The notes under the pieces were generated by a model. It was not told the DNA's origin, did not search any database, and saw only the letters and a program-made list of their open reading frames with translations. From an uncultured Bacteroidales bacterium (GTDB taxonomy: Bacteria > Bacteroidota > Bacteroidia > Bacteroidales > FEN-979), in the NCBI GenBank assembly GCA_963785325.1, contig CAWAVC010000012.1, positions 35,455-99,454 of the forward strand: a stretch of DNA of 64,000 nucleotides. The letters run 5' to 3'. The position numbers and the translations under genes were made by a program. Shown here piece after piece: positions 5,497 through 30,531 of this stretch (positions are counted from its first letter, which is position 1; every line of letters starts with the position of its first letter).

Positions 5497-5498
5497 GG

Positions 5499-5560
5499 AA
5501 TGAAAAATGAAGAATGAAGAATTAAAAATTAAAATTAAAAATGAAAAATGAACAATTGAG
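5499..5560. repeat. AATGAAG/AATTAAA heptamer array (~9 units)
   Basis: Starts 2 nt after the MFS stop codon. Confidence 0.85.
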
Positions 5561-5609
5561 GGGCATCTTACTACATCCGATTCCCATATCAGGAAAAAGT
5601 GGTTGCAGG

Positions 5610-7689: not shown

Positions 7690-7795
7690 AGAAAGAAAAA
7701 TGAAGAATGAAGAACGAAGAAATGCAGGAATGCAGGCGTATAAATGCAGGATCGAAAATGGGCACTTAAACTTAACACTTAAAACTTAGTACTTA
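7685..7795. repeat. AATGAAG-like x5, AATGCAG-containing units x3, then (C)ACTTAA-like x5
   Basis: Units read directly; the TGA stop of the S9 gene lies inside the first unit. Confidence 0.85.
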
Positions 7796-7797
7796 CG

Positions 7798-9295: not shown

Positions 9296-9317
9296 TAATG
9301 ATACCTAAGATATCACT

Positions 9318-11177: not shown

Positions 11178-11187
11178 CGTACAATAT

Positions 11188-11213
11188 AATAATTGAATCG
11201 TAATTCGTAATTT
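11188..11213. repeat. Short array TCGTAATTCGTAATT (reverse complement of the AATTACG family)
   Basis: 11198-11212, just before the MFS start. Confidence 0.6.
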
Positions 11214-11220
11214 AACAAAG

Positions 11221-12468: not shown

Positions 12469-14489
12469 AAAGAAAACGGAAGGTCGGACTGGTTGCAAAA
12501 GACCCATGGCTGAAACCTGCCGAGTCTGAGATTTGCGCCAGGTACGACAGGTACAAGCGGATCTTTGAAGAACTTAAAAGTACCTGGGGCAGTTTATTGA
12601 AATTCGCTGATGCATACCACTACTTCGGGATCCATTATGATAAAGAGCGCAAAGGCTGGGTTTATCGCGAATGGGCCCCAAAAGCACAAGACCTCTATTT
12701 TTTTGGCGACTTTAACTCCTGGCAACGATATTCGCACCGGATGGCCAGAAATCAATATGGCGTATGGGAAATATTTCTTGATAAAGCGACATACAAAGAC
12801 CGCTTCACCCACGGAAGCTTAGTGAAAGTGATGGTTCATTCAGACCTCGGATTCCAGGAAAGGATCCCGGCCTATATCCAACGCGTAGTCCAGGATCCCG
12901 TAACACTTAATTTCACCGGTCAGGTCTGGCTTCCTCATGAGAAATTCGATTGGGAAGGCGATCATTTTAATATAAAGCAACTCGGGGAGTTGTTCATTTA
13001 TGAATGTCATGTAGGAATGGCTCAGGAAGAGGAAAAAGTTGGGACATTCATCGAATTTGCTGATGCTCTTATTCCTTATATAAAAAACTCAGGATACAAC
13101 ACCATCCAATTGATGGCTATCGCTGAACATCCTTATTATGCTTCCTTTGGCTATCATGTTTCAAACTTTTTTGCTGTTTCTTCCCGCTTTGGTACTCCCA
13201 TCGACCTAAAATACCTTATCCGGAAAGCGCATGAGCAAGGGCTGGCCGTCATAATGGATCTTGTTCATTCCCATACCGTTAAAAATGTTGCCGAAGGTTT
13301 AAATATGTTTGATGGATCGGATAACCAGTACTTTCATGCCGGCGAACGCGGCAATCATCCTTATTGGGATTCAAAATGCTTTGATTATGGGAAGAGGGAA
13401 GTGCTTAGATTCCTCTTATCCAATATAAAATTCTGGATGCAGGAATTTCATTTCGATGGATTCCGATTTGATGGAGTCACTTCCATGCTATATTTTGATC
13501 ACGGGTTCCGCAACACTTGGGGTCTTGACGGATATTTCAGGGAGGGCGTGGAATGGGATGCAATCACCTACCTTCAATTAGCCAATAAACTTGTTCATAC
13601 CCTTAACCCAAATGCTGTGACCATTGCCGAAGATGTCAGTGGAATGCCTGGAATTGCCAGACCAATTATAGAAGGAGGAATCGGGTTTGATTACAGGCTC
13701 GGGATGGCTATTCCTGATTTCTGGATCAAACTATTGAAAGAAAAGGTTGATGAAGCATGGAACCTGGATGAGATGTTCAAGGTGATGACAAACCGGCTTC
13801 CGGAGGTTAAAACCGTGGCTTATTGCGAATCGCATGATCAAGCCCTGGTTGGTGACCAGACTATCGCTTTCCGCCTGATGCAAAGTAATATTTATTTTCA
13901 TATGCAGAAAGAGGACAAAAATATTGCAATCGATCGCGGGATGGCCTTGCATAAAATGATCCGTTTATTTACAATTGCTTTGGGAGGACAAGCTTATCTC
14001 AACTTTATGGGTAACGAATTCGGTCATCCCGACTGGATCGACTTTCCCAGGGAGGGTAACAAATGGTCATACAAGTATGCTCGCAGGATGTGGTCTCTGG
14101 TGCAAAATCCGAACCTCAAGTACCATTATCTGGGTGCCTTCGATAACGACATGCTGAAGTTGGCTAAAGACTATTCTCTTTTAAACATGGAATACGGGAA
14201 TCAGCTTTACCTGGATGATTGGAACAAAACACTTGTCTTTGAGAAGAATGACTTGATCTTTATATTCAACTTTCATGTGAATCATTCCCTTCCGGATTAT
14301 GATTTCATCGTTAAGGAGCCAGGGGATTACAAGATTATTCTCAATACTGATAATCCTAAATATGACGGGCATGGAAGGATTGATGAAAAGACCATTTTTA
14401 TCACTCAATATAATGAGAAGAAAAAAGTTCACAAGCTGAAGATCTATAATACGAATAGAACGGCCCTGGTTTTAGAAAGAATAAAATAA
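12465..14489 (+). CDS. glgB: 1,4-alpha-glucan branching enzyme (GH13_8 type)
   Basis: YREWAPKA, EHPYYASFGYHVSNF, DGFRFDGVTSM, AEDVSGMP, ESHDQALVGD, FMGNEFGHP. Confidence 0.95.
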   Translation: MKRKRKVGLVAKDPWLKPAESEICARYDRYKRIFEELKSTWGSLLKFADAYHYFGIHYDKERKGWVYREWAPKAQDLYFFGDFNSWQRYSHRMARNQYGVWEIFLDKATYKDRFTHGSLVKVMVHSDLGFQERIPAYIQRVVQDPVTLNFTGQVWLPHEKFDWEGDHFNIKQLGELFIYECHVGMAQEEEKVGTFIEFADALIPYIKNSGYNTIQLMAIAEHPYYASFGYHVSNFFAVSSRFGTPIDLKYLIRKAHEQGLAVIMDLVHSHTVKNVAEGLNMFDGSDNQYFHAGERGNHPYWDSKCFDYGKREVLRFLLSNIKFWMQEFHFDGFRFDGVTSMLYFDHGFRNTWGLDGYFREGVEWDAITYLQLANKLVHTLNPNAVTIAEDVSGMPGIARPIIEGGIGFDYRLGMAIPDFWIKLLKEKVDEAWNLDEMFKVMTNRLPEVKTVAYCESHDQALVGDQTIAFRLMQSNIYFHMQKEDKNIAIDRGMALHKMIRLFTIALGGQAYLNFMGNEFGHPDWIDFPREGNKWSYKYARRMWSLVQNPNLKYHYLGAFDNDMLKLAKDYSLLNMEYGNQLYLDDWNKTLVFEKNDLIFIFNFHVNHSLPDYDFIVKEPGDYKIILNTDNPKYDGHGRIDEKTIFITQYNEKKKVHKLKIYNTNRTALVLERIK

Positions 14490-14500
14490 TAATCCAAAAG

Positions 14501-15638
14501 ATGAAAAAGGCTTTTCTTATTCTTTTTTTACTGCTTTCCCAAACAATCTTTGCAGGGAATTTTGAACGATTCATAAACTATTTAAATCTGTTACCGTTGC
14601 ATGAAAGAAAGTCGAAAGCCGACAGTTTCATGAAAGCACATCACGTCTTCCCTTTAATTGAAAAAGATACGGCTGTAACTTTTATATACGAGGGAGAGGC
14701 TAAGAGCACAAAAATTGCCGGAGATTTTACCGGTTGGAGTCCGTCTATTTCTATGACGGGTGTTGCCGGAACCAACTTCTTATACAGCACCACTCATTTT
14801 GAAGCAAATGCCAGGCTGGAATATAAATTTATCATTGACGGCAAATGGATTCTTGATCCAAAAAATACCGACAGTATCAAAGGTGGCATGGGAACTAACT
14901 CGGAATTAAAAATGCCTGAATATGTAACTCCTCAGGAAATTTATTTTTACCCGGGTATCCCGCATGGAACCATACTGGATACTTCTTTTTTCAGCGATCA
15001 ACTGAACAACAGCAGGCCGGTAAAGATATATTTACCTCCGGGATATTCAGTGAAGAAGCAATATCCGGTCATTTTATTTCATGATGGTTTAGAATTTGTT
15101 TCATTGGCTGATATTCTAAATACCCTGGATTACTTAATTGCACACCATGAAATAGAACCAGTGGTTGGGGTATTTGTTCCTCCAGTTGATCGCAATAATG
15201 AATATGGCGGAACAAAAAAAGATGAGTTTACAGAATTCATTGTCAAAGAACTTATGCCGATAATTGACCGGAAGTATTCCACAAGTAAGGACCCTTCCAA
15301 ACGAGCTACTTTTGGCATTTCCGAAGGAGGAAATATTGCTCTTTACATTGGTATGAAACATCCGGAAACATTTGGTAAGGTTGCGGCGATGTCGAGTGAT
15401 GTTCAGACTGTCATATCCATGGGATTTCAAAAGTCTGCAAAAATGAACCTGGAATTTTACCTGGATATCGGGAAATATGATCTCCCTGTATTAATTCCTC
15501 TGGTCAATAAGTTTATAAAAATACTTCAGAACAAACATTATTGTTACCAGTTCAGACAATGGAATGAAGGTCATTCCTGGGGCAATTGGAAAACACATGT
15601 GGGAGGTCCCTCTCCGGCAGTTCTTTCCTCCGGAGTGA
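14501..15638 (+). CDS. Secreted CBM48 + alpha/beta-hydrolase esterase (CE1/Fes-like); probable +1 error at ~15602 near the C-terminus
   Basis: IAGDFTGW..EYKFIIDGKWILDP (CBM48); GISEGG nucleophile elbow; EGHSW; removing one G gives HVEVPLRQFFPPE-stop at 15638 (raw ORF runs to 15664). Confidence 0.8.
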
Positions 15639-15687
15639 CAAAATCATTAAAAAAAATAAAATAAACCTCCTATATTAATTCAAATCA

Positions 15688-18087
15688 ATGATTATGCAAA
15701 AGAAACTGAACTTTATCAAAGGAATCGTGTTTCTGTCATGCATCGCCCTTTTGCCAGGGTGTGCTAACCATGAAGATATTAAAGCTCCCGATAAACCTGA
15801 AATTACCGGGGTTGCAAATCCAATTGTAATGCAGCCAGATTCGACCACAATTATTTTGGGAGATTATTTTCTTCATCCTAAATCTATCGACTCCATTATT
15901 ACGGATAAAAATCTTTCATGGCGAATCTCCCATGATTCAACAGAGCTCACGCTCACTCAGCAGGAAAAATCCGTTCCTCGCTTATCGTTAATGAAAGTAT
16001 GGATTGGTGGGTATTGCTACTCTTTGCTTCTGGAAAAGTCACGCAAGATATGGCAGCACATTACTTTTGACCCCAAAGATAAAAAGTACAAGAATGTAGA
16101 AATTGCCGGTGATATGAATGAGTGGACTCCTGGCCGATCGCCTATGCATCTAAAAAATGGCATCTGGCAGACTGATTTCCTGCTATTCCCGGGTAAATAT
16201 CAGTACAAACTCGTGCTTGATAAGAAATGGGTGATTGATCCCGGAAATCCTGAAAGTGTTGACAATAACATAGGTGGAACCAATTCACTGCTTCGGGTCG
16301 GGGCGATTAATCCTTCCGGTGCGCCAAATCTATATACGGCAAAAGCTGACAAAGACAAGATCACCATCGGGATAAGGAATAAAACGAAAGAAATCTTTGT
16401 CTTCTGGCAGAATTACCTGCTTAATGAAAAATTCTGGAAACTGGACAGCACTGGGATTAAGATTAAGATCCCTTTAAAGGCAAGAAACATGGAACGTTCA
16501 TATATCAGGGTATGGGCATTCAACGCTGCCGGAACTTCAAATGAAATTCTTATTCCTTTGGAAGAAGGTCGCATCATAACTAATCCCGCCAAACTAACAC
16601 GCCAGGATAAACAGACTATGATCATGTATTTTCTGATGGTTGACCGGTTCCGGAATGGTGACCCGAAAAACGATGCACCATTGAATGACAGGGATGTGGA
16701 TAAAAAACTGAATTTTCAGGGAGGTGACCTTAGGGGAATTGTCCAGACCATTGAAAACGGTTACTTCAAAGAGTTGGGCATCAATACCCTTTGGATCTCC
16801 CCAATCACACAGAATCCCAAAGATGCCTGGAATGAATACCCTGCTCCTCACCGGAAATTCTCTGGCTATCACGGTTATTGGCCTTTGACCCTCACCACCA
16901 TAGACACCCGGTTCGGGACACCGGATGACCTGAAGGCTCTGGTCAGTGATGCTCATGGCAACAATATGAATATAATCCTTGATTATGTTTCAAATCATAT
17001 TCACCAGGAATGTAAAGTTTATAAAGACCATCCCGATTGGGTAACGCCGCTCCTCCTTCCGAATGGAAAGAAGAACATCCGGCTTTGGGACGAACAGCGA
17101 CTTACTACATGGTTTGATGAATTCCTCCCGACCCTTGACCTCTCCAAACCGGAAGTCTGCAATATGATGTCTGATTCAGCCCTTTATTGGATTAAAACCT
17201 ATGAGTTAGACGGATTCCGTCATGACGCTACGAAGCACATCCCTGAGGTTTATTGGAGAACACTGACAAAAAAACTTAAGAACCAGGTCATCATTCCTGA
17301 TAACCGGCCTATTTACCAGATCGGTGAAACCTTTGGCAGCCGTGACCTTATCAATAGTTATATCAATCCCGGAGGATTGGATGCACAGTTTGATTTTGGA
17401 TTGTATTTTGATGCACGTAATGCATTCGCCAGAGAGAATTCATCCTTTAAAGACCTGAACTATTCTCTTCAGGAGAGTTTCAGCTATTTTGGCGAACATT
17501 CGCTGATGGGGAATATCACTGGTAATCAGGATCTTTCACGGTTTATTTCGTTTGCAAGCGGAGCGCTCAGTTTTAATGAAAATGATCAGCAAGCAGGATG
17601 GGAAAGGGATATCGAAGTAAAAGATACTTCAGGTTATGGCCGGCTGGCATCACTGATGGCCTTTAACATGACCATCCCGGGAATCCCTATTATTTATTAT
17701 GGTGATGAATTTGGGATGCCGGGAGCCGGCGATCCGGATAACCGGAGGATGATGCGGTTTGACAACCTTTCACCCCAGGAAAAGCAGCTAAAAAACACGG
17801 TTGAGAAGCTGACTCACCTTCGCAGCACTTCTATGCCATTATTGTACGGTGATTTTAAAACCATTGAAACAGGAGACAAGACTTATGTTTACATGAGGAC
17901 ATACTTTGATAAAGTGGTATTCGTGATCTTCAATAAAGACAAAGCATCCCGGAAAATTGAGATTGCAATCCCCGAAAGATTTATAGGGACCAAACTGCTC
18001 AATCAATTCGGATCTGATGCCAAAGTTAAAAAAGACAAGATAACACTGAATCTGAAAGGAAATTCGTTTGAGATAATTACAAACTAA
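15688..18087 (+). CDS. GH13 alpha-amylase-family lipoprotein with internal CBM48
   Basis: Lipobox LPGC; IAGDMNEW..YQYKLVLD; GYHGYW, DGFRHDATKH, GETF, GNQD. Confidence 0.88.
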   Translation: MIMQKKLNFIKGIVFLSCIALLPGCANHEDIKAPDKPEITGVANPIVMQPDSTTIILGDYFLHPKSIDSIITDKNLSWRISHDSTELTLTQQEKSVPRLSLMKVWIGGYCYSLLLEKSRKIWQHITFDPKDKKYKNVEIAGDMNEWTPGRSPMHLKNGIWQTDFLLFPGKYQYKLVLDKKWVIDPGNPESVDNNIGGTNSLLRVGAINPSGAPNLYTAKADKDKITIGIRNKTKEIFVFWQNYLLNEKFWKLDSTGIKIKIPLKARNMERSYIRVWAFNAAGTSNEILIPLEEGRIITNPAKLTRQDKQTMIMYFLMVDRFRNGDPKNDAPLNDRDVDKKLNFQGGDLRGIVQTIENGYFKELGINTLWISPITQNPKDAWNEYPAPHRKFSGYHGYWPLTLTTIDTRFGTPDDLKALVSDAHGNNMNIILDYVSNHIHQECKVYKDHPDWVTPLLLPNGKKNIRLWDEQRLTTWFDEFLPTLDLSKPEVCNMMSDSALYWIKTYELDGFRHDATKHIPEVYWRTLTKKLKNQVIIPDNRPIYQIGETFGSRDLINSYINPGGLDAQFDFGLYFDARNAFARENSSFKDLNYSLQESFSYFGEHSLMGNITGNQDLSRFISFASGALSFNENDQQAGWERDIEVKDTSGYGRLASLMAFNMTIPGIPIIYYGDEFGMPGAGDPDNRRMMRFDNLSPQEKQLKNTVEKLTHLRSTSMPLLYGDFKTIETGDKTYVYMRTYFDKVVFVIFNKDKASRKIEIAIPERFIGTKLLNQFGSDAKVKKDKITLNLKGNSFEIITN

Positions 18088-18102
18088 TAAACTTATAACC
18101 TT

Positions 18103-19488
18103 ATGAACAAAACAGACTTCATTCAGCAATTACCGAAAATCCTTGCTTTCATCTTGCTGATAGCTGCAGGGATTGTAATTTGGTCATGTGCCGGTTTCAG
18201 CGGGGAAACTTCAAAACGCGAACTTATTCACCCGGAGTGGGCAAAGAATGCGGTACTATACGAAGTTAACGTCAGACAATATACGCCAGAAGGCACATTC
18301 AAAGCCTTTGAAAAGCATCTTTCACGCCTGAAAGCGATGGGCATAGATATTCTCTGGTTGATGCCGGTCAACCCAATCGGGATAAAAAACCGGAAAGGAA
18401 CACTTGGAAGCTACTATTCAGTAAAAGATTACCTGGCAGTGAACCCTGAATACGGTACAAAAGATGATCTGAAGGAATTGGTTAACAAAGCGCATGAGCT
18501 TGGCATGCACGTGATTATCGATTGGGTTGCCAATCATACATCCTGGGATAACAACCTGATCACGGAACACCCTGACTGGTATAAACATGATTCAACCGGT
18601 AAGATTATTCCACCGGTTCCCGACTGGACCGATGTGGCCGGTCTGAATTATACGAAAAAAGAATTGCGCGAATACATGACCAGTGCATTAATTTACTGGG
18701 TAAGGGAAGCCGACATTGACGGTTTTCGGTGCGATGTTGCAGGGATGTTGCCAGTCAGCTTCTGGAATGAAGCAGTTCCAAAGATCAAAGCGGTAAAGCA
18801 TGTTTTCATGCTGGCAGAATGGGAAACTCCTGAAATGCATGATACAGCTTTTGACATGACCTATTCATGGAATGCATATCAGGTAATGAATGCTATTGCT
18901 AAAGGCAAGAGAACTGCACATGCAATTGATTCAGTATTAAAATCGGATTCTGCCAAATATCCAGCCGATGCTATCCGTATGCGGTTCACTACAAATCATG
19001 ATGAGAACTCCTGGAACGGAACAGAATATACACGGTTGGGCGACGCTGCAAAGACATTCGCCGTGTTATGTTTCACTTTGCCTGGTATGCCATTGATCTA
19101 TAGTGGACAAGAATCGGCCTTTAACAGAAGTCTTAAATTTTTTGATAAAGACATTATTGATTGGGACAATTATTCCATGGCAGACTTTTATTCTCAGTTA
19201 GGTAAACTAAAAAAAGAGAACATGGCTTTATCTGCAGGATCTGCCGGAGGAAAAATGATTAAAGTTGCCTCTGATAATGATAATAATGTTTATTCCTTTT
19301 TACGAAAGAAAGATAATAATACTGTTTTTGTCATTCTTAACCTCTCATCTGTCGAACAAAAAGCGACCCTGAAAGGGAACAGCTATGAGGGAGATTATAA
19401 AAGTCTTTTCGAAAATAAAGATATTCATCTTGATGGTTCCCTCTCAGTAACCCTGAAACCATGGGAGTATAGAGTATATTACAGATAA
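18103..19488 (+). CDS. GH13 alpha-amylase (lipoprotein-like)
   Basis: LYEVNVRQYTPEG, DWVANH, DGFRCDVA, AEW, TNHDEN. Confidence 0.9.
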   Translation: MNKTDFIQQLPKILAFILLIAAGIVIWSCAGFSGETSKRELIHPEWAKNAVLYEVNVRQYTPEGTFKAFEKHLSRLKAMGIDILWLMPVNPIGIKNRKGTLGSYYSVKDYLAVNPEYGTKDDLKELVNKAHELGMHVIIDWVANHTSWDNNLITEHPDWYKHDSTGKIIPPVPDWTDVAGLNYTKKELREYMTSALIYWVREADIDGFRCDVAGMLPVSFWNEAVPKIKAVKHVFMLAEWETPEMHDTAFDMTYSWNAYQVMNAIAKGKRTAHAIDSVLKSDSAKYPADAIRMRFTTNHDENSWNGTEYTRLGDAAKTFAVLCFTLPGMPLIYSGQESAFNRSLKFFDKDIIDWDNYSMADFYSQLGKLKKENMALSAGSAGGKMIKVASDNDNNVYSFLRKKDNNTVFVILNLSSVEQKATLKGNSYEGDYKSLFENKDIHLDGSLSVTLKPWEYRVYYR

Positions 19489-19620: not shown

Positions 19621-20670
19621 CTAATTCTGCTTCAGATTATATCTGAATACTGCACCAGTAAAGTTAAGTGTAACGGTGTAGTTGCCGGCATTTGCAACCG
19701 TAATGCCACCAGTCCCCAAACTTAAAGACCCACTTCCGGTTGGGTCGCTATAGGCCAGTGTATTCGAGTTATTGGCACGGAAGTAAACAAGGCCTGCTGA
19801 GAGGCTCTGTGTCACACTCCATGTCCTTGCAGTGTGGTCATATGTCATAGCCACGTCCGTATTACCTGTTGAAGTTCCATAGATACTCCATGTCGTTAAC
19901 AGATAAGTATGGGTCAAAGAATTGATATTTGCTGTTAAGTGATAATAACCGGGTCCAGTCGTAGGAACAATATTATTACCATTTAGTTCCAATGATCCTG
20001 TACCGCCATTATCTCCCCAATTGGTTGTCCATTTTGGATCCTTGGAATATTTGTACCCAGCGCTGGATCCGGTACCAATTGAATCAAAGAAGATATATCC
20101 ATCATATATATTATTCGCTTTAGCCGAATAAATTACGGTAATTGAGTCGCCCGCATTCCAGCCATTATATTGACCGGGAACAAATAAAAACGGATAAACG
20201 ATCTTCACGTAATACGGAGTATAGACCTTAGCTACTACGGGAGAATTGGCAGGACTCGACGAAGTGTTGTATGATGCCTGAACCCTGAACTCAAGTGGTA
20301 ATGGAGTTGACGGATTCAAATCCGGGTCAAATTCTAATCCCAGCAATTGATTGTTAAGGGCACTGGTTTGAACAGAGAGCGAAGTAGCGGATGTTATAGA
20401 TCCAATTGCAAGTGCATTCTTGAAATTATCCCCTTGCTTGTCCACCTGAAGAGTGTAAGTAACAACAAGATTGATCCCAAAATTTACAGGTGTCCATTTA
20501 AAGGTAATCATGGTATCCGCATAGGATTTTTGAAGCACCACGGTATCGCCGGCCGTCAATTTTAAAACTGGCAGAACCGGAGATGCGCTGACCTCAGCTT
20601 TTTCGGCTTTTTTACACGAAAAGAAGCCCGTCAAAGCTATTATAAAAATAATTATTGATAGTTTTTTCAT
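19621..20670 (-). CDS. SusE/SusF-family starch-binding outer-membrane lipoprotein
   Basis: Lipobox FFSC; SusE N-domain (FKWTPVNFG..YTLQVD); two C-terminal CBM modules (LFVPGQYNGW, YFRAN); follows susD. Confidence 0.88.
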   Translation of the reverse strand: MKKLSIIIFIIALTGFFSCKKAEKAEVSASPVLPVLKLTAGDTVVLQKSYADTMITFKWTPVNFGINLVVTYTLQVDKQGDNFKNALAIGSITSATSLSVQTSALNNQLLGLEFDPDLNPSTPLPLEFRVQASYNTSSSPANSPVVAKVYTPYYVKIVYPFLFVPGQYNGWNAGDSITVIYSAKANNIYDGYIFFDSIGTGSSAGYKYSKDPKWTTNWGDNGGTGSLELNGNNIVPTTGPGYYHLTANINSLTHTYLLTTWSIYGTSTGNTDVAMTYDHTARTWSVTQSLSAGLVYFRANNSNTLAYSDPTGSGSLSLGTGGITVANAGNYTVTLNFTGAVFRYNLKQN

Positions 20671-20692: not shown

Positions 20693-22891
20693 TTAATAAC
20701 CTGTATTTTGTTTCAGATTCGGATTTGCAGAAACATCAGCAGCAGGTAAGGGGAAAATATTGTATTTCGCATCCGTTCCTGCACCACTGCTAGCACCGCC
20801 TTTCCATGGCCATAAATACGTACTGGTCGTTAATTCTCCGAAACGAACAAGATCTGTTCTCCTGTAACCTTCCCAGTAAAGTTCACGTCCTCTTTCATCG
20901 AGAATAAATTGCAGGTTCAGTTGGTTACTCGTTATATTACCCGTATTATCACCATAAGCCCTCGTCCTCAGATCATTTACAAGTGTCAATGCCGTACCAA
21001 GATCACCACCGCTTCCACCTCTCAGAACTGCTTCAGCATACATCAGGTAAACATCAGCCAGACGGAACATCGGGAAATCAATATCTTCGTAATTAAGATT
21101 AGATCCGGGGGCTCCGCTTCTGGTTACATTTTTCCACTTGGTTACTGCATAACCATCATTGAAATTACCTATATCCTTGATATCAAGTGTTTGACCGTCT
21201 GACCAGAACATTGCCCTGTGGTCATAACTGTTCCTGACAATGGTATAGGTATAGTCTGGAATACCCAGCTTCATGGTAATGGTATAAGTTCCTGCAGTTG
21301 CTACCGGAATATTTGAGCCACCAGCTTCGAGTATTCCATTACCCAGGTTATCTCCATAATCAATATCCCAGGCACCATTTGCACGGAATTTAATACTTCC
21401 GACTGTCAGGTCGAGAACTACCGACCACGTTCCGGTTGTTGTATCATAGGTCATTGGAGAATCCGTACTCCAACCTCCCGGTGTTGCATCGCCAACAGCG
21501 CCCCATGTAGTCTTTATAAGTGTATAAGTCAGTGCTGTGGTATCAACGTTAATTTTATAATAGCCCGCAGGGCCTGCCGTAATGTTACCGCCATTTGGAT
21601 CGAGAACACCATTGGCGCCACCCCAACTATGGTTCCAATTGGGTGCAGGGCAGATTTTAAACAGAACATTATCAGTCTTGAAATTAATGTAGCCTTCGTA
21701 TTGACTATTACTACCCACTGAGGCAATAACAGTTTTAGTGTTTGTCGGATCCCATCCCTGGTAAGAACCCGGGACATAGAGAACAGGATAGGATTTGGGA
21801 TTTTTTGGAGGAGTAGGAGAATTCCATGGCACATCTTTAAGGGTAGAATAGAATAAATGTACGAAAGCGCTGGTTACCCGCGTACCTGCCCAACCTCCGG
21901 CAACACCATAATCGGCAGGCACCATGCTTCCTCCAACTGCTGCATGAAGAATGAACGTTGTGCCACCATAAGTTTGTGTTCTCAATCCATCAAATTCAAC
22001 AGGAAAAATGATCTCATTACTGAGGTTGTTATCGGCAAGAAAGAGCCACTGATAGTCAGCGTCAAGAGCATACCCTGAATTGATCACATCATTGCAGTAT
22101 GTAATGCAATCGGTACTTCTGTCGGTACCTGTATAAACTGAAGCATTCAGGTAGAGTTTGGCAAGCAAAGTCTCTACAGCTGCTTTGTCAGCACGTCCAT
22201 ATTCATTTGACTTTGCGTTTACCATTAAAGGTTCAATTGCCTTTAATTCACTTTCAATGTATGTAAAAAGATTAGCACGTTTGACCTGGGGAGGGAAGAA
22301 TTTTCCTACCTGGTCATTCTCAGTTACAAATGGAACATTCCCAAACATATCCAGTGCATGATAATAACTCAGTGCCCGCAGGAAACGAACCTCAGCACGA
22401 TAGTAATGTATATTGGTCAGATCAGAAGGTTTCGTAATACCATAACCGCTGAGTTTTGCATCTGTCGATTCCCTTATAAACTCATTGCAGAGACATATCT
22501 CGTAATAAATCCTGTAGTACATGGCTGCAATGAATACATCGCTTGCGGTCCAATCCAGCGAATGGAAATTCTTCACTGTCTGGTCATTCCAAGAAATAAC
22601 GGCTTCATCGGTAGGTAGCTCCTGGTGATACCAGAACATACGGATGTATTCGCCGAATCCTTCATCAATTCCGGCGATATCAGCATTTCCTGCAGGACCC
22701 TGTTGCCCTGTAACTGAAAGTCCTGCATAGCACTTGGCTAAAACTTGCTTAATGCCTGTAGGTGTGTTGTAAACATTATCCGGAGTTAATACATTCGGAT
22801 CGATCGGCCCCTTATTCAGGTCCTTTGTGCAGGAAGCAAGAAAAACCGTAATCGCCGTGATAAGGAATGCTATCTTAAATATTCGTTTCAT
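20693..22891 (-). CDS. susD: SusD-family lipoprotein (starch type) with an internal insertion of SusE/F CBM modules
   Basis: Lipobox LASC; ELPTDEA, RFLRALSY, FPMFRLADVYLMYAEA, DERGRELYWEGYRRTDLVRFG; 732 aa. Confidence 0.93.
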   Translation of the reverse strand: MKRIFKIAFLITAITVFLASCTKDLNKGPIDPNVLTPDNVYNTPTGIKQVLAKCYAGLSVTGQQGPAGNADIAGIDEGFGEYIRMFWYHQELPTDEAVISWNDQTVKNFHSLDWTASDVFIAAMYYRIYYEICLCNEFIRESTDAKLSGYGITKPSDLTNIHYYRAEVRFLRALSYYHALDMFGNVPFVTENDQVGKFFPPQVKRANLFTYIESELKAIEPLMVNAKSNEYGRADKAAVETLLAKLYLNASVYTGTDRSTDCITYCNDVINSGYALDADYQWLFLADNNLSNEIIFPVEFDGLRTQTYGGTTFILHAAVGGSMVPADYGVAGGWAGTRVTSAFVHLFYSTLKDVPWNSPTPPKNPKSYPVLYVPGSYQGWDPTNTKTVIASVGSNSQYEGYINFKTDNVLFKICPAPNWNHSWGGANGVLDPNGGNITAGPAGYYKINVDTTALTYTLIKTTWGAVGDATPGGWSTDSPMTYDTTTGTWSVVLDLTVGSIKFRANGAWDIDYGDNLGNGILEAGGSNIPVATAGTYTITMKLGIPDYTYTIVRNSYDHRAMFWSDGQTLDIKDIGNFNDGYAVTKWKNVTRSGAPGSNLNYEDIDFPMFRLADVYLMYAEAVLRGGSGGDLGTALTLVNDLRTRAYGDNTGNITSNQLNLQFILDERGRELYWEGYRRTDLVRFGELTTSTYLWPWKGGASSGAGTDAKYNIFPLPAADVSANPNLKQNTGY

Positions 22892-22910: not shown

Positions 22911-25889
22911 TTAGAATAAAAGATTTACACCCAAAACAAAAACCCGTGACCTTGGATAAACGTTATTGTCAATACCCACGGAAGAGCCTAAATTGACTTC
23001 AGGATCAACTCCGGTGTATTTAGTAATCGTCAAAACGTTATTCACAGTGGCCGATACACGCAGATCCGTTGTACCTTTTATGACACTTCCGAAGTTATAG
23101 CTGAGGGTGAGGTAGTCTAATTTGAAGAACGATGCATTCTGAACGTAATAATCGGAGAAATACTGATTATTTACAAAATTCGTACTATAAACTGAACTTG
23201 TAACATTTCCCAGATATGTTCCACCCAAACGGTTAATGTTACTCCATACACCATCGTTGGCATCATTGTTATTGTACATATAGTTTCCAACTTCAGCATG
23301 ACCGCCGGCTGCCAATGACCATTGCTTGTATTTCAATGCTGTGTGAATGCCAAAAGTTGCGGTGGGTTCAGCGCTATGGTCATGATACAGGTCAGCAGTT
23401 GTAATTTTTCCGTCACCGTTCCGGTCAACATAAACACCTTCTATTGGTTTTCCGTTCTTATCATATGCCTGCTGGTACACATAGAAGGAATTCAACTGAT
23501 ACCCTACGGTTTGAATCTCAATATTATTGCCAACACCACCACTGATACTCCCTGTTGGAATTCCTGCATAGGTAGGATCTGAGCTTATAAGAAGCTTGGT
23601 GATTTTATTTGCATTAGTGGCAACATTACCGCCAATCTCCCAGTTCCAGTTTTTACTGACAATAGGTCTCAGCTCTAAACTGAATTCGAACCCTTGATTC
23701 CACATGCTTCCAATATTTGTCCAGATATAATTCGTCAGGTTTGTGCCTGCAGGAACAGGCACATAGTTCAAAAGGTTTGTAATATTTTTGTAGTAGTATT
23801 CAACCGAACCTGTTATCCTGTCTTTTAAGAAACCAAAATCGATTGCAGCATTTGTTGTTGCAGTAGTCTCCCATTGAATATTCTTATCATATCCGCTTGG
23901 ACGAAGTGTCCGGTACCAGACATTCCCAAACTGGTACATGGTTAAAGCATCACCGAGGTAATAGGTAGGAAGATATGGATACCAGTTGGTTCCGACTTCC
24001 TCATTTCCTGTTTCTCCCCAGCCAACCCTGAGTTTCAACGTTGAGACAACCTTTGAATTACGCAAAAAAGATTCATCATTGATTTTCCATGCAAGTGCTG
24101 CAGAAGGGAATAACCCCCATTCCTTATTTGATGCAAATTTTGATACACCGTCATCGCGTAATGTGAATGTCAGTAAGTACCTGTTCAAAAGTGTGTAATT
24201 TAAACGGCCGTAATATGATACGATGTAATACTGGCTCTTGGAAGGATAAGAAAGAGCATGAGTGGTATCATGTGGAACGTTGTTATTGATAGAATTTGCT
24301 TCAATAAAGAAATGCTGCCAGGAATATCCGGCCATTACATCAAATTTACTCTTGATACTTTTAACATCCTTTACATAATTGAGATAAAAGTCCAGCAAGG
24401 TGTTATCTTTTGTTTGGTTGTATTTGTTGTCCTCTCCGAAATCAGTAGACAGCCATGAAGCGTACTCGGGAATATAGGTGGTTCCATCGGATTGAGTATG
24501 ATCCAACCCAAGATTCAGGACAGCTCTTAAATCCGGAAAGAAATGAAGCTTATAATCAAACTGAATATTTCCCAGGAGTCTGTCTACTGATGCTTTATCT
24601 TGTTTCTCATTTAACAAACCTACCGGGTTGGTAGTAGCAAGGCTTACAGGTGCTCCGCTTGCTTGTTCCCACATCCAGTATCCGCTCCTGTTATTGACCC
24701 TTGTATCAAATACAGGTTGTGTGGGGTCAAATCCCAGAGCATCTCCTATAGCACCCTGATCTGCAAACCTGTTCTGAATGTTCATGTATTTTATATTGGC
24801 ATTGATCTTAAGGTGATCGTCAAAGAAAGAGGGATTCAGATTTGCCCCGACAGAAATTCTTTTCATGTTATCTGTCTTGAGAATCCCGTCCTGGTACATG
24901 TATCCCAGAGAAACACGGTAAGGGAAATTTTTTATTCCACCGGAAAAAGCAAAATTATGATCCGTGCTGATGCCGGTCTGATAGATTTGTTTTTGCCAAT
25001 CGGTATTTGCTTTCCCGAGTAATCCGGTATCCTGAGGGTATCTCGATTTTACTTCTGAACGGAATTGATCCGAGTTCAGAACACTAATTTCTTTAGGTAC
25101 AGTAGATATGGAAATTGTTCCTGAATATTCATGAGTGAATTTGTTGGTTCCGCCTGCAGCTTTTCCTTTTTTCGTTGTTATGATGATTACCCCGTTCGTA
25201 GCCCTGGAACCATAAATGGCAGTAGCAGAGGCATCCTTGAGAACCGTATAGGTTTCGATATCGTCTGGATTGATCATCGAAAAGTTTCCACGTGAACCTG
25301 AGATTGCATCATTATCAATGGGAACTCCATCGATCACAATCAATGGGTCATTGGAGCCATTAATAGAGTTGTTTCCGCGGATACGGATCACCGCATCGCC
25401 ACCTGGTGCGCCACCTAATGTGGTAACCTGAACACCGGCAATTTTCCCGATGATCAATTCCTGAGGCGAAGAAATAGCCCCCTGGTCAAAATCTTTCCGG
25501 TCTACCGCCGTAACTGCACCCGTCGCATCTTGCTTTTTCACCTGGCCATAACCAATTACTACTACCTCATTGAGGCTTGTTACTGAAGCTGCAAGCGAAA
25601 CATCAATCACTTGTTTCCCTGCCACAGGAATTTCCTGCGTTTGATACCCCATATAAGAGAACACCAGGGTCGCCCCTGACTGAACCTTAATGGTGTATTT
25701 CCCGTCAATATCCGTTACGGCTCCTGTCGTAGTGCCTTTCACTAGGACAGTCGCTCCGGGAATTGAACTTCCGTCAGCAGCATCTTTCACTTTTCCTGTT
25801 ACTGTAATTTCCTGAGCATACGCGATCGAGGCGGATGCAATTGCAAGGAAAATGAACAGATAACGTAACCATAGTATACGTTTCTTCAT
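22911..25889 (-). CDS. susC: SusC/RagA TonB-dependent outer-membrane transporter
   Basis: EVVVIGYG, PLIVIDGVP, VLKDASATAIYGSRATNGVIIITTKKG; C-terminal Phe. Confidence 0.96.
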   Translation of the reverse strand: MKKRILWLRYLFIFLAIASASIAYAQEITVTGKVKDAADGSSIPGATVLVKGTTTGAVTDIDGKYTIKVQSGATLVFSYMGYQTQEIPVAGKQVIDVSLAASVTSLNEVVVIGYGQVKKQDATGAVTAVDRKDFDQGAISSPQELIIGKIAGVQVTTLGGAPGGDAVIRIRGNNSINGSNDPLIVIDGVPIDNDAISGSRGNFSMINPDDIETYTVLKDASATAIYGSRATNGVIIITTKKGKAAGGTNKFTHEYSGTISISTVPKEISVLNSDQFRSEVKSRYPQDTGLLGKANTDWQKQIYQTGISTDHNFAFSGGIKNFPYRVSLGYMYQDGILKTDNMKRISVGANLNPSFFDDHLKINANIKYMNIQNRFADQGAIGDALGFDPTQPVFDTRVNNRSGYWMWEQASGAPVSLATTNPVGLLNEKQDKASVDRLLGNIQFDYKLHFFPDLRAVLNLGLDHTQSDGTTYIPEYASWLSTDFGEDNKYNQTKDNTLLDFYLNYVKDVKSIKSKFDVMAGYSWQHFFIEANSINNNVPHDTTHALSYPSKSQYYIVSYYGRLNYTLLNRYLLTFTLRDDGVSKFASNKEWGLFPSAALAWKINDESFLRNSKVVSTLKLRVGWGETGNEEVGTNWYPYLPTYYLGDALTMYQFGNVWYRTLRPSGYDKNIQWETTATTNAAIDFGFLKDRITGSVEYYYKNITNLLNYVPVPAGTNLTNYIWTNIGSMWNQGFEFSLELRPIVSKNWNWEIGGNVATNANKITKLLISSDPTYAGIPTGSISGGVGNNIEIQTVGYQLNSFYVYQQAYDKNGKPIEGVYVDRNGDGKITTADLYHDHSAEPTATFGIHTALKYKQWSLAAGGHAEVGNYMYNNNDANDGVWSNINRLGGTYLGNVTSSVYSTNFVNNQYFSDYYVQNASFFKLDYLTLSYNFGSVIKGTTDLRVSATVNNVLTITKYTGVDPEVNLGSSVGIDNNVYPRSRVFVLGVNLLF

Positions 25890-26179
25890 AATCTTGAAAT
25901 TAAATAGTTAAACATTTCATTAATTGACTGTACTGATGTTATTCTAAAATTTCCTTAGTGTAAAAGTAAACAAAAAATTAAACGTGTTAATAAATAGTTA
26001 ATGAAAAGTAAAAATAAATAAAAAAAATAAATATTGATTACTTTTTTACTAAAAATTTTCAGAATTTAATAGAGAATGACATAAAATCAGGTGATGACCA
26101 AGAATAGTTCAGTACGATACTGAATTTAAACCATGAAATATTCACTGCCAAGTATCGTTATAAGTTGTTGCTGTTTTTT

Positions 26180-26187
26180 TATCTTTG
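26180..26187 (+). promoter_or_regulatory. Sigma-A -7 element (TATCTTTG)
   Basis: TAnnTTTG lies inside the ORF-track N-terminus, implying the true start is ATG 26202 or 26208. Confidence 0.55.
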
Positions 26188-26207
26188 CACTTCTCAAATT
26201 CATGATC

Positions 26208-27597
26208 ATGAAGCGATTTTACAGGTTAGGTTTATTATTTTTATTTCCCCTGCTTATTCCAGCCATTGTTTTTTCACAATCGACAGAAAAAAAACAACCG
26301 CATATTGAGGTTGTCTCATCCGGCAGTGTCATAAAAATGAAAACTGCACCTTATGTTCCCGCGTCAGAACAAATCCTTTTTCAGGTTGATATGTCACAAT
26401 GGGCTGCAAAAGGAAAATTCAACCCGGCCAGTGATTCCATTGATATGCCCGGGACTTTTAATAACTGGGCAGGTTCAGCGACTCTACAAAAGGTGGATAC
26501 CACGCTGGTTTACCAGATCACACTGAACTTGGATTCATTGACTGTTCAGGAGTTCCGTTTCAGGATTAATCATGATTCAAGCCGTACGGAATTTCCCAAT
26601 GGCATAAATCGCATGTTCCGTGTACCCGCCAAACCAATGACCGTTAAATACATATACAATAATTTCGATACCACAACTGTTCCTATGACCTTTATCTGCG
26701 ATATGTATTACCAGATCAAAGCAGGTCATTTTGATCCCGATCCATTAATGGATTACCTGGATGTGGCAGGATCAATGAATAACTGGGGAACTTATGATGT
26801 ATTGTTCGACGTTGACCAAGATAGTATTTATCAGGTTACGCTTAATTTGCCACGCAGTCTGATCAGCCTATACATACCTATTGAATTCAAGTTTCGGATC
26901 AATGGAAACTGGAACACATCAGAATTCCCGAACGGCGGTTTGTTCCGGACATATTTTTTAAAAGATACTGTTGGAGGAATAGAAAACACTCTGGTAGTTT
27001 GGTATAATGACCTAAACCCCGGTATTCCTACTCCTCCATGGGCATATAATCTTTATATCCAGGGTGAATATTATGAAGGCCAGACTCTCACAGGTTCATA
27101 TGATTATGAAGATGTTAATTTACTACCGGAAGGTGCATCCATCTATAAGTGGTACCGTGCTGATTCGGTGACACAGGTTGACCCTGAATTGCGCACTGCA
27201 GATTCGACTATTAACTATGTACTGGACTCGACCGATTTTCATAAATTTCTTGCATTCGAAGTCACTCCCGTCGCCCAAGGCACCGGTGATTCCCTCATAG
27301 GGAAACCGGTCAGGGACCTGGACAGGATCGATTGGAGGAGTCGGAATTGGAGAACTTAACGAGATTAAGCCTGGAATCTATCCTAACCCAGTGACCGACA
27401 AAATAATCTTCACAAACGTGGATAACATTCAGCAAATCGAGATTTTTTCAATTCTCGGACAAAGGATCGGCGTTATAAAAACCAATATTTCGGGCAAGTT
27501 AACATATGATACCTCATCCCTGAACAGTGGCATCTATTTTATAAAATTTTCAAAACAAGATCATACCTTTACAACCATAAAATTCATAAAGAACTAG
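26208..27597 (+). CDS. Non-catalytic T9SS-secreted protein: two tandem CBM20-like modules + Ig-like domain + T9SS type A CTD; frameshift at ~27313
   Basis: Repeated F.(V/C)DM..G.F.P..D...G..NNW..EF.FRIN..EFPNG modules; removing one G gives TWTGSIGGVGIGELNEIKPGIYPNPVTDK...GIYFIK...KFIKN. Confidence 0.75.
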
Positions 27598-27640
27598 CAA
27601 GAATTCCCTTTTTTTAACCGGTCGGTCAGTCTTTTTTTCG

Positions 27641-27648
27641 TAACTTTG
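27641..27648 (+). promoter_or_regulatory. Sigma-A -7 element (TAACTTTG)
   Basis: TAnnTTTG 21 nt before ATG 27670. Confidence 0.55.
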
Positions 27649-27669
27649 TCTTTATCAAAATATAGAAAC

Positions 27670-30531
27670 ATGAATTCAAAGAAACTCCGGCTGCTTAAAA
27701 TACTGGCTATTGTATTTCTTTCGGGTCCATTGTCCGCTCAAACTGTAGTAACAGAGCCGGTTTATCCGACGGATCTTGATTCGGTGACAGTGATCTATGA
27801 TGCAACAAAAGGAAATGGCGCCCTGAAAAATGTATCTCCGCCCATTTATGCACATACCGGTGTGATCACCAACCTCAGCGCTACTCCGTCAGACTGGAGA
27901 TATGTAATCGCCCCCTGGACGACAAACCTCCCGAAAGCGCTGATGACCCCTTTGGGAAACAATCTTTACAAGATCAAAATAGCGCCAAGTATCCGTTCCT
28001 GGTATGGGGTATCTTCTTCAGAACAGATTCTTAAAATGGCATTTGTATTCAGGAATTCAGATGGATCTATAGTTGGCAGAGAAGCTGACGGAGGTGATAT
28101 TTTTACTAATGTTTACCCGGCCAAAACCAGTATTACAATTCAGAAACCGACAGTTAAAGCACTATATCCAAGGCTCAACGATACGATTGCTGTCGACGCC
28201 ATAAGCCCGCTTGCCGATACAATAAAAATGTTTGTCAACAATATCCTTGTAAAGAAAGAAGCAGGAACCGTTTTGACGGATACGTTGCTCGCAAATAATT
28301 TTGGACAGTTCTGGACAAAACAATGGGTAAAACTGGTAGGAGAAAATGATACGGCATCTGCGACTGATTCTTTTTTTTATGAAGTTATTCCCGCGCCTCC
28401 GGTTACAGAATTGCCGTCAGGGATTATCGACGGAATAAATTATATTGATTCCACGACTGTAGTTCTTTCCTTATATGCACCCGGCAAAGATCATTCTTTT
28501 ACAATCGGTGATTTTACAGATTGGCAGATTGAGTCTCAATATTATATGAACAAAACGCCAGATGGAACACATTTCTGGATCCAGATTGATAGTCTCACAC
28601 CACGGAAAGAGTATATATTTCAGTATCTTGTGGATGGAAATCTAAGTATTGCAGATCCTTATTCTGATAAAATCAGTGATCCCAATGATCAATACATCAG
28701 CCAGTCAACCTACCCCGGCCTCCTTCCCTATCCTACCGGGAAAACGACAGGCATTGCATCCTACCTGCAAACTGCACAGGTTCCATATTTCTGGTCCACC
28801 ATATCATATACACCTCCGGCACCAACCGACCTGATCATTTATGAAGTGTTGATCCGGGATTTTATCGCTACCCACGATTATCCCGGGTTGATAGATACGC
28901 TTGATTACTTCAAAAGACTTGGGGTGAATGCCATTGAACTGATGCCCATTATGGAGTTTGAAGGCAACGATAGTTGGGGTTATAACCCGGATTTTGAATT
29001 TGCCCCAGATAAGTATTATGGAACAAAGAACGGGTTGAAAAAATTTGTTGAGGCCGCTCATGCAAGGGGATTAGCAGTGATACTTGACATCGTGCTGAAT
29101 CACCAGTTTGAAGAATCTCCTTTGGCCATGCTATATTGGGACGGTACAAACAGCCGGCCGGCGGCTGATAATCCCTGGTTCAACGCCATTCCTACGCATC
29201 CTTACAACGTTGGAAATGATTTTAACCATAAAAGTCCACAAACTAGGGTCTATTGTGAACGGGTGATCCGTTACTGGCTTCAGGAATACCATGTTGACGG
29301 CTATCGCTTTGACATGTCGAAAGGTTTCACACAAACAAACTCTTACCCCGATAATATGACATTATGGGCAGCTTATGATACAGGCCGTATTGCAATCCTG
29401 AAAAATTACGCCAATGTGGCACATTCTGTCAATCCAAATGCATATGTGATCCTTGAACATTTTGCAGATAACGATGAAGAAACTGAATTGAGCGCCGACG
29501 GTATGCTGCTTTGGGGTAACCTGAATTACAATTATAATGAAGCAACAGAAGGATTGAATACGGGAAGTCTTTCTGATTTCTCATGGATATCTTATAAGCA
29601 AAGAGGCTGGGCAGATCCCCATGTGGTGGGATACATGGAAAGTCATGATGAAGAGCGTTTGATGTATAACGATATCCATGCAAGTAATACTTCAAATTCA
29701 AATTACAATCCCCGGGATACCTCCATTTCATTAAAGCGCATCGGCATGGCAGCAGCATTTTTCTATACCATCCCGGGGCCTAAAATGCTATGGCAGTTTG
29801 GCGAACTTGGATACGATTATTCAATAAACTATCCTTGTATGACTTCTGATTGCAGACTCTCTGACAAACCGATACGATGGGATTATTATAACCAATGGCG
29901 CCGGAGATACCTGTTCAATACCTGTGCAAGCCTCATGGACCAGAAAATAAATAATGATGCCTTCCGCAGTACTAATTACTCCGTTTCGCTTACCGGGCCC
30001 TTGAAACACATCAATATTACAGGCTCCAACATGGATGTTGTGGTAATTGGAAATTTTGATGTTTACCAGGGCAACATCACTCCCGGATTCAGTCAAACCG
30101 GGCCATGGTATGACTTCTTTGGAGGCGACACCTTGAATGTTGCCACTCTCACAGATCAGATTTCACTTCAGCCGGGAGAATATCATATTTATACGACGAT
30201 AAAATTGCCCAAGCCGCAATTTACCGGTATTGATGATGCTGCAAATGCGGCTAAGCAGGAAGGGAATTACTCACTTGTTTATCCAAATCCATCCTCAGGA
30301 GCTTTTACGATTCAATATACCCTTAATACGCCACTTCATATAAGGATTATGGTGTCAGATATATATGGGAGACCGATTGCCGTTTTATCTGAAGGAAAGG
30401 TTGAAAACGGAACTCATACTGTGATTTGGAATGGATTGGATGATAAAGGACAAAAGGTTTCTCCGGGATTATACCTATATAAATTCGATGCAGGAGATCA
30501 CACAGAAATCGGGAAACTTATAGTTCAGTAA
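27670..30531 (+). CDS. T9SS-secreted GH13 (amylase/pullulanase-like) with N-terminal accessory domains
   Basis: IYAHTGVIT N-domain; IYEVLIRDF, SWGYNP, DGYRFDMSKG, ESHDEER; VYPNP...GLYLYK CTD. Confidence 0.9.
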   Translation: MNSKKLRLLKILAIVFLSGPLSAQTVVTEPVYPTDLDSVTVIYDATKGNGALKNVSPPIYAHTGVITNLSATPSDWRYVIAPWTTNLPKALMTPLGNNLYKIKIAPSIRSWYGVSSSEQILKMAFVFRNSDGSIVGREADGGDIFTNVYPAKTSITIQKPTVKALYPRLNDTIAVDAISPLADTIKMFVNNILVKKEAGTVLTDTLLANNFGQFWTKQWVKLVGENDTASATDSFFYEVIPAPPVTELPSGIIDGINYIDSTTVVLSLYAPGKDHSFTIGDFTDWQIESQYYMNKTPDGTHFWIQIDSLTPRKEYIFQYLVDGNLSIADPYSDKISDPNDQYISQSTYPGLLPYPTGKTTGIASYLQTAQVPYFWSTISYTPPAPTDLIIYEVLIRDFIATHDYPGLIDTLDYFKRLGVNAIELMPIMEFEGNDSWGYNPDFEFAPDKYYGTKNGLKKFVEAAHARGLAVILDIVLNHQFEESPLAMLYWDGTNSRPAADNPWFNAIPTHPYNVGNDFNHKSPQTRVYCERVIRYWLQEYHVDGYRFDMSKGFTQTNSYPDNMTLWAAYDTGRIAILKNYANVAHSVNPNAYVILEHFADNDEETELSADGMLLWGNLNYNYNEATEGLNTGSLSDFSWISYKQRGWADPHVVGYMESHDEERLMYNDIHASNTSNSNYNPRDTSISLKRIGMAAAFFYTIPGPKMLWQFGELGYDYSINYPCMTSDCRLSDKPIRWDYYNQWRRRYLFNTCASLMDQKINNDAFRSTNYSVSLTGPLKHINITGSNMDVVVIGNFDVYQGNITPGFSQTGPWYDFFGGDTLNVATLTDQISLQPGEYHIYTTIKLPKPQFTGIDDAANAAKQEGNYSLVYPNPSSGAFTIQYTLNTPLHIRIMVSDIYGRPIAVLSEGKVENGTHTVIWNGLDDKGQKVSPGLYLYKFDAGDHTEIGKLIVQ

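Follow-up and report, generated by a model that had tools for sequence, protein, structure and literature searches.

A SusD-family transporter lid with built-in SusE/F-type modules in an alpha-glucan locus of an uncultured Bacteroidales bacterium

Glycan uptake in Bacteroidota centers on SusCD transporters, with the starch system as the model, and how the SusE and SusF lipoproteins cooperate with SusCD is still debated in terms of stable versus dynamic assembly. A 64,000-nucleotide stretch of an uncultured Bacteroidales genome (hereafter the window: contig CAWAVC010000012.1, positions 35,455 to 99,454, from a draft assembly of 2.49 Mb in 55 contigs, ~80% complete) touches on this debate through its susD gene. 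The encoded protein has 732 residues, whereas SusD of Bacteroides thetaiotaomicron (Bt) is given as 551 residues in the available part of one source (10.64898/2026.09.16.752182), and a preliminary description of the window had read the extra length as SusE/F modules lying inside SusD. Does such a protein exist, where does its additional part come from, and what might it do on a transporter lid? We find that SusD with built-in SusE/F modules is real, common in environmental Bacteroidota, and apparently undescribed.

Architecture of the SusD lid and identity of its insert

The gene lies on the minus strand at 20693..22891 as a single uninterrupted open reading frame (ORF) of 732 residues plus stop, with all of its parts on that strand. 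A signal peptide with lipobox (residues 1-21, 22829..22891; MKRIFKIAFLITAITVFLASC) ends in Cys21, which is invariant in the aligned relatives (sets of 88 and 24). It is followed by the N-terminal part of the SusD core (residues 22-349, 21845..22828), which aligns with positions 21-318 of the Bt SusD chain and 4-305 of 3JYS and carries the glucan-site residues R84, W101, D103, Y308, and W334. Here the core is interrupted, first by a Pro-rich linker of ~19 residues (350-368, STLKDVPWNSPTPPKNPKS; 21788..21844), with a predicted local distance difference test score (pLDDT) of 66-79 in the full model, and then by two beta-sandwich modules. Module 1 (residues 369-461, 21509..21787) is of SusE/F or X25 type and contains W380, K412, and W419, while module 2 (residues 462-555, 21227..21508) is of SusE/F type, contains W474, K501, R503, N505, and W508, and has a Pfam SusF_SusE match at 466-569. 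After a short return from the insert, the C-terminal part of the core (residues 556-732 plus stop, 20693..21226) aligns with 3JYS 318-499 and Bt SusD 350-526.

The protein is a lid lipoprotein of the SusD/RagB family, a membership that rests on family hidden Markov models (HMMs), the SusD fold, the lipoprotein cysteine, and the position of the gene directly downstream of susC, and it belongs by its glucan-site residues and its alpha-glucan locus to the starch-type SusD group. In Pfam, SusD_RagB (PF07980) scored 127 bits (cut-off 23.1), and because its full profile (1-297) is spread over residues 292-732, the domain is split by the insert; SusD-like_3 (PF14322) scored 29.5 bits (cut-off 27). 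The NCBIfam SusD model NF033071 matched with E 2.7e-132 and 441.8 bits, under its strict cut-off of 725. When PDB sequences were searched, the flanks matched 3JYS with E 4e-109 (residues 40-348 to 4-305 and 556-732 to 318-499) and Bt SusD (3CK7) with E 4e-90, and from these alignments the insert takes the place of a 12-residue loop in 3JYS and of ~30 residues in Bt SusD. The equivalent loop has 2-7 residues in close insert-less relatives, and base composition is steady across both insert junctions. For the AlphaFold model of the full protein (mean pLDDT 92, predicted TM score [pTM] 0.77), Foldseek gave TM (target) values of 0.90 with 3JYS and 0.85 with Bt SusD (E 1e-34 to 1e-37).

Turning to the insert, we found that Pfam SusF_SusE (PF16411) matched it in two stretches with 49.3 bits (cut-off 27.5; E 8.8e-13) and that X25_BaPul_like (PF22058) matched residues 375-431 weakly (24.9 bits, below its cut-off of 27); PF26123 and PF26120 are precomputed Pfam domains on relatives. 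Downstream of susD lies the gene of a stand-alone SusE-like lipoprotein of 349 residues (19621..20670, minus strand), with Pfam SusE at 30-131 and two C-terminal modules that are paralogous to the insert: BLASTP aligned SusD 355-554 with residues 140-349 of this SusE at 39% identity (E 7e-35). Among shorter proteins the insert had 426 matches, most of those listed being SusE-like proteins of ~345 residues, with up to 59% identity across 93-99% of the insert and source names such as 'SusE domain-containing' and 'starch-binding outer membrane protein SusE/F'. Aligned with 45 of these SusE-like proteins, the insert starts at their inter-domain linker (..YP.L.VPGSYQGW), to which the Pro-rich linker of SusD aligns, and ends at their very C terminus (..KN; RN in SusD). 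Since the insert spans SusE from the linker to the last residues, what was copied corresponds to all of the 3' portion of a susE-like gene. Pfam found no N-terminal SusE domain (PF14292) in SusD, and only the last ~200 residues of SusE-like proteins align with the insert, so that the protein is a SusD bearing SusE-derived modules and not a SusE.

Because only SusD-family chains were among the Foldseek matches listed for the whole model, the insert was modeled by itself. The resulting AlphaFold model (pLDDT 89.5, pTM 0.83) consists of two beta-sandwiches, at ~369-461 and ~463-553, which are internal repeats with corresponding W..K..W positions. Only four Foldseek matches reached E<=0.001, namely Ruminococcus bromii Sca5 X25-2, SusF, and SusE twice, with values of 1.5e-6 to 3.6e-6 for the SusE/SusF binding modules. 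By VIA, the tandem superposes on SusF 276-485 (Z 12.9, 172 residues aligned) and on SusE 179-387 (Z 11.8); next come starch-binding modules from amylases and pullulanases (Z 6.8-10.9), and unrelated folds start from Z 5.1. With the same program, module 1 matched Bacillus acidopullulyticus pullulanase (2WAN, chain 163-259, Z 8.4), and module 2 matched Sca5 X25-2 (Z 10.9) and the N-domain of a Klebsiella amylase (Z 8.8). Searched alone against PDB sequences, the insert gave weak matches only (BT3088, E 0.0033) and none to SusE/F; a profile of the SusE-like proteins reached Bt SusE (4FEM) with E 2.8e-7.

The insert is thereby confirmed as a linker plus two C-terminal SusE/F-type modules without the N-terminal SusE domain. 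On this point the preliminary description had been right throughout: ORF, Pfam, and fold all place SusE/F modules in the interval it had named (21225-21850, residues ~348-556), the BLASTP alignment contains every motif pair by which it had likened the insert to the C-terminal part of the downstream SusE, and the frame is continuous with both SusD halves intact, as the uninterrupted ORF and the flank matches to 3JYS and Bt SusD attest. The domains that it expected from a scan (SusD-like_3, SusF_SusE, and a split SusD_RagB) were all matched, and the insert agrees with SusE/F models by HMM, profile alignment, AlphaFold, and fold comparison.

Binding-site residues and a proposed role for the insert

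In Bt SusCD, the core site of SusD sandwiches maltoheptaose against SusC (10.64898/2026.09.16.752182, available part). The contacts are made by W98, N101, W320, R81, D73, and D64, and the alleles W98A/Y296A/W320A and W98A/N101A/W320A are binding-deficient, according to the accessible sections of 10.64898/2026.09.16.752182 and PMC4173775. Positions 57, 74, 77, 272, and 296 of the chain in our HMMER alignment, with an offset of 24, are R81, W98, N101, Y296, and W320 in this numbering. Five of the seven glucan-site residues are identical in the window protein, where R84, W101, D76, Y308, and W334 stand for R81, W98, D73, Y296, and W320, and two differ (N101 is D103, and D64 is A67).

Conservation was counted over 121 aligned sequences, that is, the window protein and the 120 best-matching clusters listed. 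R84, W101, D103, and W334 of the core were identical in 121/121, and position 308 was W in 90 and Y in 31. Within the insert, W380, K412, and W419 of module 1 and K501, R503, N505, and W508 of module 2 were likewise identical in every sequence, and W474 was identical in 120. A profile alignment to 4FEM sets the module-1 triad against W, K, and Y at positions 163, 192, and 200 of the Bt SusE chain; with an offset of 29, these would be W192, K221, and Y229, putative ligand residues of the Eb module.

We propose that this protein is probably the lid of a starch SusC with a susE-derived cassette that works as a covalent capture arm. The cassette would stem from the 3' portion of a susE-like gene and have entered a surface loop of susD, at a point ~15 residues past the Trp that corresponds to W320 of Bt SusD. 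The lid would then carry three alpha-glucan binding sites, and the two extra modules, on their flexible Pro-rich linker, would form a covalently attached arm. Such a tandem may catch long alpha-glucan chains and keep them at the SusC mouth, at the SusC-SusD interface, where it would add avidity for long chains and hand segments to the SusD core site. Fused modules would in this way do permanently what separate, dynamically associated SusE/F lipoproteins do, and fusion could remove the need for helper docking, the SusE docking-type domain being exactly the part left uncopied. We infer that the insert binds starch; a capture-arm function is plausible and fits the conserved aromatic/lysine triads.

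Several observations weigh against this proposal. The pTM of 0.77 leaves the inter-domain orientation of the SusD model uncertain. Equating W380/K412/W419 with the SusE Eb site would depend on the profile alignment and on a tentative assignment of the starch-binding residues of SusE. Sequence change is somewhat quicker in the insert, which averages 62% identity to the window protein while the core averages 70%, and which is the lower of the two in 119/120 relatives. Many lineages, described below, have lost the insert, which makes it dispensable. Finally, SusE is reported, by the title of Foley et al. 2018, to aid starch uptake independently of starch binding, and SusE-type modules may accordingly have non-binding roles.

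The same title speaks for an architectural rather than a glycan-binding role, in which the insert would act as a spacer, offer the amylase or SusE a platform for docking, or tune lid dynamics or the size of the oligosaccharides let in, with its conserved residues serving folding or protein contacts. Such a role also accords with the SusE of the window, whose module-2 triad is lost and whose gene is still kept, and with the docking of utilisome helper lipoproteins through Ig-like domains (10.1101/2022.08.15.503959, available part). We nevertheless regard it as unlikely, given that the Trp/Lys/Trp triads are of solvent type and conserved in both modules (120-121/121), that their counterparts in the alignment to Bt SusE lie in its ligand-binding module, that every fold neighbor of the insert above Z 6.8 is a starch-binding module, and that the SusE docking domain, PF14292, is precisely what was not copied.

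Alternatively, the modules might bind another glycan, such as pullulan, alpha-1,6-branched glycogen, or some other exopolysaccharide, and would then widen the specificity of the lid rather than its avidity. The weak match of module 1 to the pullulanase X25 model is compatible with this idea, as are the debranching-type glycoside hydrolase family 13 (GH13) enzymes of the locus, which bear carbohydrate-binding module family 48 (CBM48) domains, and the match of the SusE-type profile to the dextran-binding helper BT3088 (E 2.5e-19), which runs mostly via the N-terminal domain. The nearest solved folds, however, are SusF/SusE modules that were crystallized with maltoheptaose or cyclodextrin, going by their PDB entry titles, and the residues of the core site are those of a starch SusD; we consider a different ligand rather improbable and retain the starch-capturing arm as the better account.

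Occurrence and history of the cassette

The best 120 protein clusters (90% identity), a number that is a lower bound, have 683-748 residues and match with coverage of 93-100% and identity of 60-91%, and all carry the insert at the same loop. The full form is present in 10 of 41 related genomes, all in the family of the window, and in one more genome part of it lies at a contig end. Species-representative genomes, when scanned, yielded 573 relatives, and among the best 80 loci of these 573 the two-module insert is found in 59, of which 53 are complete (insert of 201-215 residues) and 6 are cut by contig ends; the remainder comprise one locus with three modules (L065), two with one module (L076 and L077), and 18 without insert. 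The record titles name uncultured Bacteroidales, Prolixibacteraceae, Draconibacterium, Lentimicrobium, Saprospiraceae, Lewinellaceae, Chitinophagales, and Candidatus Opimibacter, and one carrier is a cultured isolate, Neolewinella aurantiaca SSH13 (L044).

No public sequencing run contained half or more of the sampled words of the window, and the four runs examined hold relatives at ~90-99% identity and not the window strain; depth gaps at 21548-21705 are uninformative. In one DNA run (X1), a single contig of 1782 bases spans 21075-21508 and 21738-22841 with a diverged stretch in between, and in another (X2) a contig spans 20600-21495. Contigs from an RNA library (X8) lie over 21810-22634 and 21056-21497, by which transcription is not proven.

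That the contig is chimeric, or that susD and susE were wrongly called as one gene, which a draft genome of 55 contigs at 80% completeness and an adjoining paralogous susE able in principle to mislead an assembler might suggest, is next to impossible and was rejected, because the design recurs at the same loop in the best 120 clusters, in the 10 related genomes, and in 59 of the 80 best loci including the isolate, contigs from other runs cover both junctions (X1) or bridge one or both (X2 and X8), the insert and the neighboring SusE are just 39% identical, and both SusD halves stay in frame. The preliminary description had named chimeric assembly as the finding that would undo it, and this danger has passed. 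It would likewise have been undone by an architecture already common and described, and it had professed to know no characterized example: the architecture is common, with at least 120 clusters, but the literature gave no account of a SusD holding inserted SusE/F modules, neither in full-text searches (supplements and subscription papers lay outside their scope) nor in the available parts of a 2026 review of glycoside transporters (PMC13543919) and of PMC10316084.

Variants of the insert were seen alongside the two-module form. L065, from a Prolixibacteraceae metagenome-assembled genome (MAG), has a SusD ORF of 860 residues with a 327-residue insert in which module 2 is tandemly duplicated. 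One-module inserts of 99-104 residues occur at the same SusD loop in L076 (Polaribacter MAG) and L077 (Lutibacter MAG), and P0124 and P0126 have SusF_SusE-type single-module inserts there (99-116 residues, L076 and L077 included). P0130 (660 residues) and P0167 (671 residues) carry inserts of 133-142 residues at this loop that have no Pfam match. Other long relatives (P0134, P0154, P0178, and P0234) have their extra length at places other than the insert loop, and in P0258 (1328 residues) SusD is followed by a C-terminal SusE domain and SusF_SusE modules, as a tandem fusion or a merge by the gene caller.

How often was the cassette acquired? In trees of the insert columns (FastTree, unrooted), 24 inserts, and later 54, fell on one side of a branch from 41 SusE C termini, rows picked from the best insert matches, with support of 99 and 97. 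A first tree of the SusD core with the insert removed used 95 of 145 aligned rows, without the fragments, the forms extended at the N terminus or lengthened elsewhere, one SusE, and most of the representatives past P0199; in it, the 24 two-module proteins form one clade with a single insert-less SusD (G015) nested inside. Insert-bearing and insert-less proteins interleave in a broader core tree (FastTree, 89 rows), with 7 state changes, of which at least 6 are forced by well-supported branches, and a quick IQ-TREE core tree (58 rows) has 8 changes of insert state, at least 4 of them forced. An approximately unbiased test rejects a single clade for the rows with an insert of at least 190 residues (log-likelihood difference 318, p 0.0005). 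The insert-less L070 (526-527 residues) is the sister of a two-module protein within the subclade of the window (support 96-97), and just 3-4 residues remain of its loop; L070 and G015 are probably the same genome and were counted once.

Between L041/L043/L045 and L017-L019/L056, inserts are 63-66% identical and cores 58-60%, where the trend predicts ~43%, which hints at cassette exchange between these susD lineages. Single-module forms lie apart from one another in the core tree, P0126 being sister to the insert-less P0160. Together with P0130 and P0167, they (P0124, P0126, L076, and L077) belong to other lineages and stand beside insert-less sisters, and these one-module and unmatched inserts at the same loop mark the loop as a recurrent insertion site. 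Since the inserts form one clade, their carriers do not, and forms with zero, one, two, and three modules exist, the cassette appears to have been gained once and later lost or exchanged time and again, and the simplest reading is a single origin with several clean losses after it. After that single origin it would have been lost, shortened, duplicated, or swapped between susD lineages. The locus of an insert-less relative (L009, G015; 4969-11891) encodes a different SusE type of 375 residues with weak similarity to the insert, as well as a second, divergent SusC/SusD pair with a 616-residue SusF_SusE protein.

The surrounding locus and comparison with known systems

The genes around susD make up an alpha-glucan (starch/glycogen) utilization locus, with six GH13 genes, GH77, CBM48, and SusE in total (Pfam). 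The susC gene (22911..25889, minus strand) sits 19 bases upstream of susD on the same strand and encodes a TonB-dependent transporter of 992 residues with the Pfam domains CarbopepD_reg_2, Plug, and TonB_dep_Rec_b-barrel and a match to NCBIfam TIGR04056 (OMP_RagA_SusC) of 772 bits (cut-off 368). Genes for alpha-glucan degradation and import occupy 7798..19488 on the plus strand and encode, by Pfam, a GH77 4-alpha-glucanotransferase, a cyclomaltodextrinase-type GH13, a major facilitator superfamily transporter, a CBM48-bearing GH13, an esterase-like protein that includes a CBM48-like domain, and another two GH13s; the esterase-family protein (14501-15664, plus strand) has its glycogen-binding AMPK1_CBM/CBM48-like domain at the N terminus. 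Divergent from susC, 26133..30531 (plus strand) holds, by Pfam, a 408-residue Ig/CBM-like protein and a 961-residue GH13 that carries a C-terminal sorting domain for type IX secretion. The 408-residue protein (26133-27359, plus strand) combines a CBM48-like match with an AIR9-type Ig domain. Two ORFs flanking the locus, of 850 residues at 30617-33169 (minus strand) and 490 residues at 34604-36076 (plus strand), matched no Pfam family at E<=1e-5.

In module 2 of the window SusE, all three W-K-W positions are gone (PGGW is deleted, IKF has become VYF, and AWD has become SNT). The loss recurs in three loci of the same genus and in L008 (loci L002, L003, L004, and L008), and the triad is kept by the SusE of L005, L007, L013, L020, and L044, with PGGW one residue shorter in L007. 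This decay may reflect relaxation once the lid had modules of its own.

What would such a lid mean for the debate on assembly? Covalent fusion in a large, old, and widespread environmental lineage is a natural experiment in which proximity of the modules to the lid was selected for, and it offers a single-chain target for binding and electron cryo-microscopy work, while variants with zero to three modules and repeated losses provide a ready comparative series. The relatives bear merely the database name 'RagB/SusD family', and since pipelines label the carriers in this way, predictions from such loci under-count starch-binding sites. New here are the exact bounds of the copied piece, the series of zero to three modules, the formal rejection of carrier monophyly, the junction-bridging contigs, and the decay of the second SusE module in the genus of the window. 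More tentatively, and with a good deal of doubt, one could see the lid array as an exchangeable cassette of zero to three copies that makes SusCD self-sufficient in capture, bypasses helper docking, and frees SusE to degenerate or specialize, as in the genus of the window, where module 2 of SusE is without its W-K-W triad. If true, the fusions would testify directly, on evolutionary grounds, to an action of SusE/F-type binding modules at the starch transporter lid, and as a 'minimal starch utilisome' that is stable and can be purified they could serve to settle whether assembly is dynamic or stable.

Compared with its nearest known relatives, Bt SusD (BT3701; PDB 3CK7-3CKC) and Bacteroides vulgatus 3JYS, the window SusD shares the fold, the lipoprotein cysteine, and the place after susC, whereas those proteins have ~500-551 residues and the window protein has 732, with ~206 residues replacing a loop of 12 to ~30; it also has D and A where Bt SusD has N101 and D64. 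The insert resembles the last two starch-binding modules of Bt SusE and SusF (PDB 4FEM/4FCH and 4FE9), and the same C-terminal part of environmental SusE-like proteins is 39-59% identical to it. Bt SusE and SusF are free lipoproteins, in contrast to the insert, which lacks both PF14292 and a separate lipid anchor and is joined to SusD at both ends.

The Bt amylase SusG follows the same principle, in that a loop of a Sus outer-membrane protein has taken up a starch-binding module, its CBM58 being an insertion inside the catalytic domain. The host in that case is an enzyme with one module of another family (CBM58; PMC4173775, available part), and here it is a transporter lid with a tandem. The levan and dextran utilisomes are described as stable complexes in which a helper lipoprotein docks on loop 1 of SusC by an N-terminal Ig-like domain and holds a mobile binding domain near the transporter mouth as a 'grappling device' (10.1101/2022.08.15.503959, in the part available). 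For the Bt starch system, by contrast, assembly is described as dynamic, the starch SusC having few docking points for extra lipoproteins (10.64898/2026.09.16.752182, in its accessible part). The surface glycan-binding proteins of utilisomes (PDB 9SJE, BT3088) are separate and docked non-covalently, whereas the modules of the window protein are a covalent part of the moving lid; what the two would have in common, on the role proposed here, is a mobile glycan-binding domain held near the mouth of the transporter.

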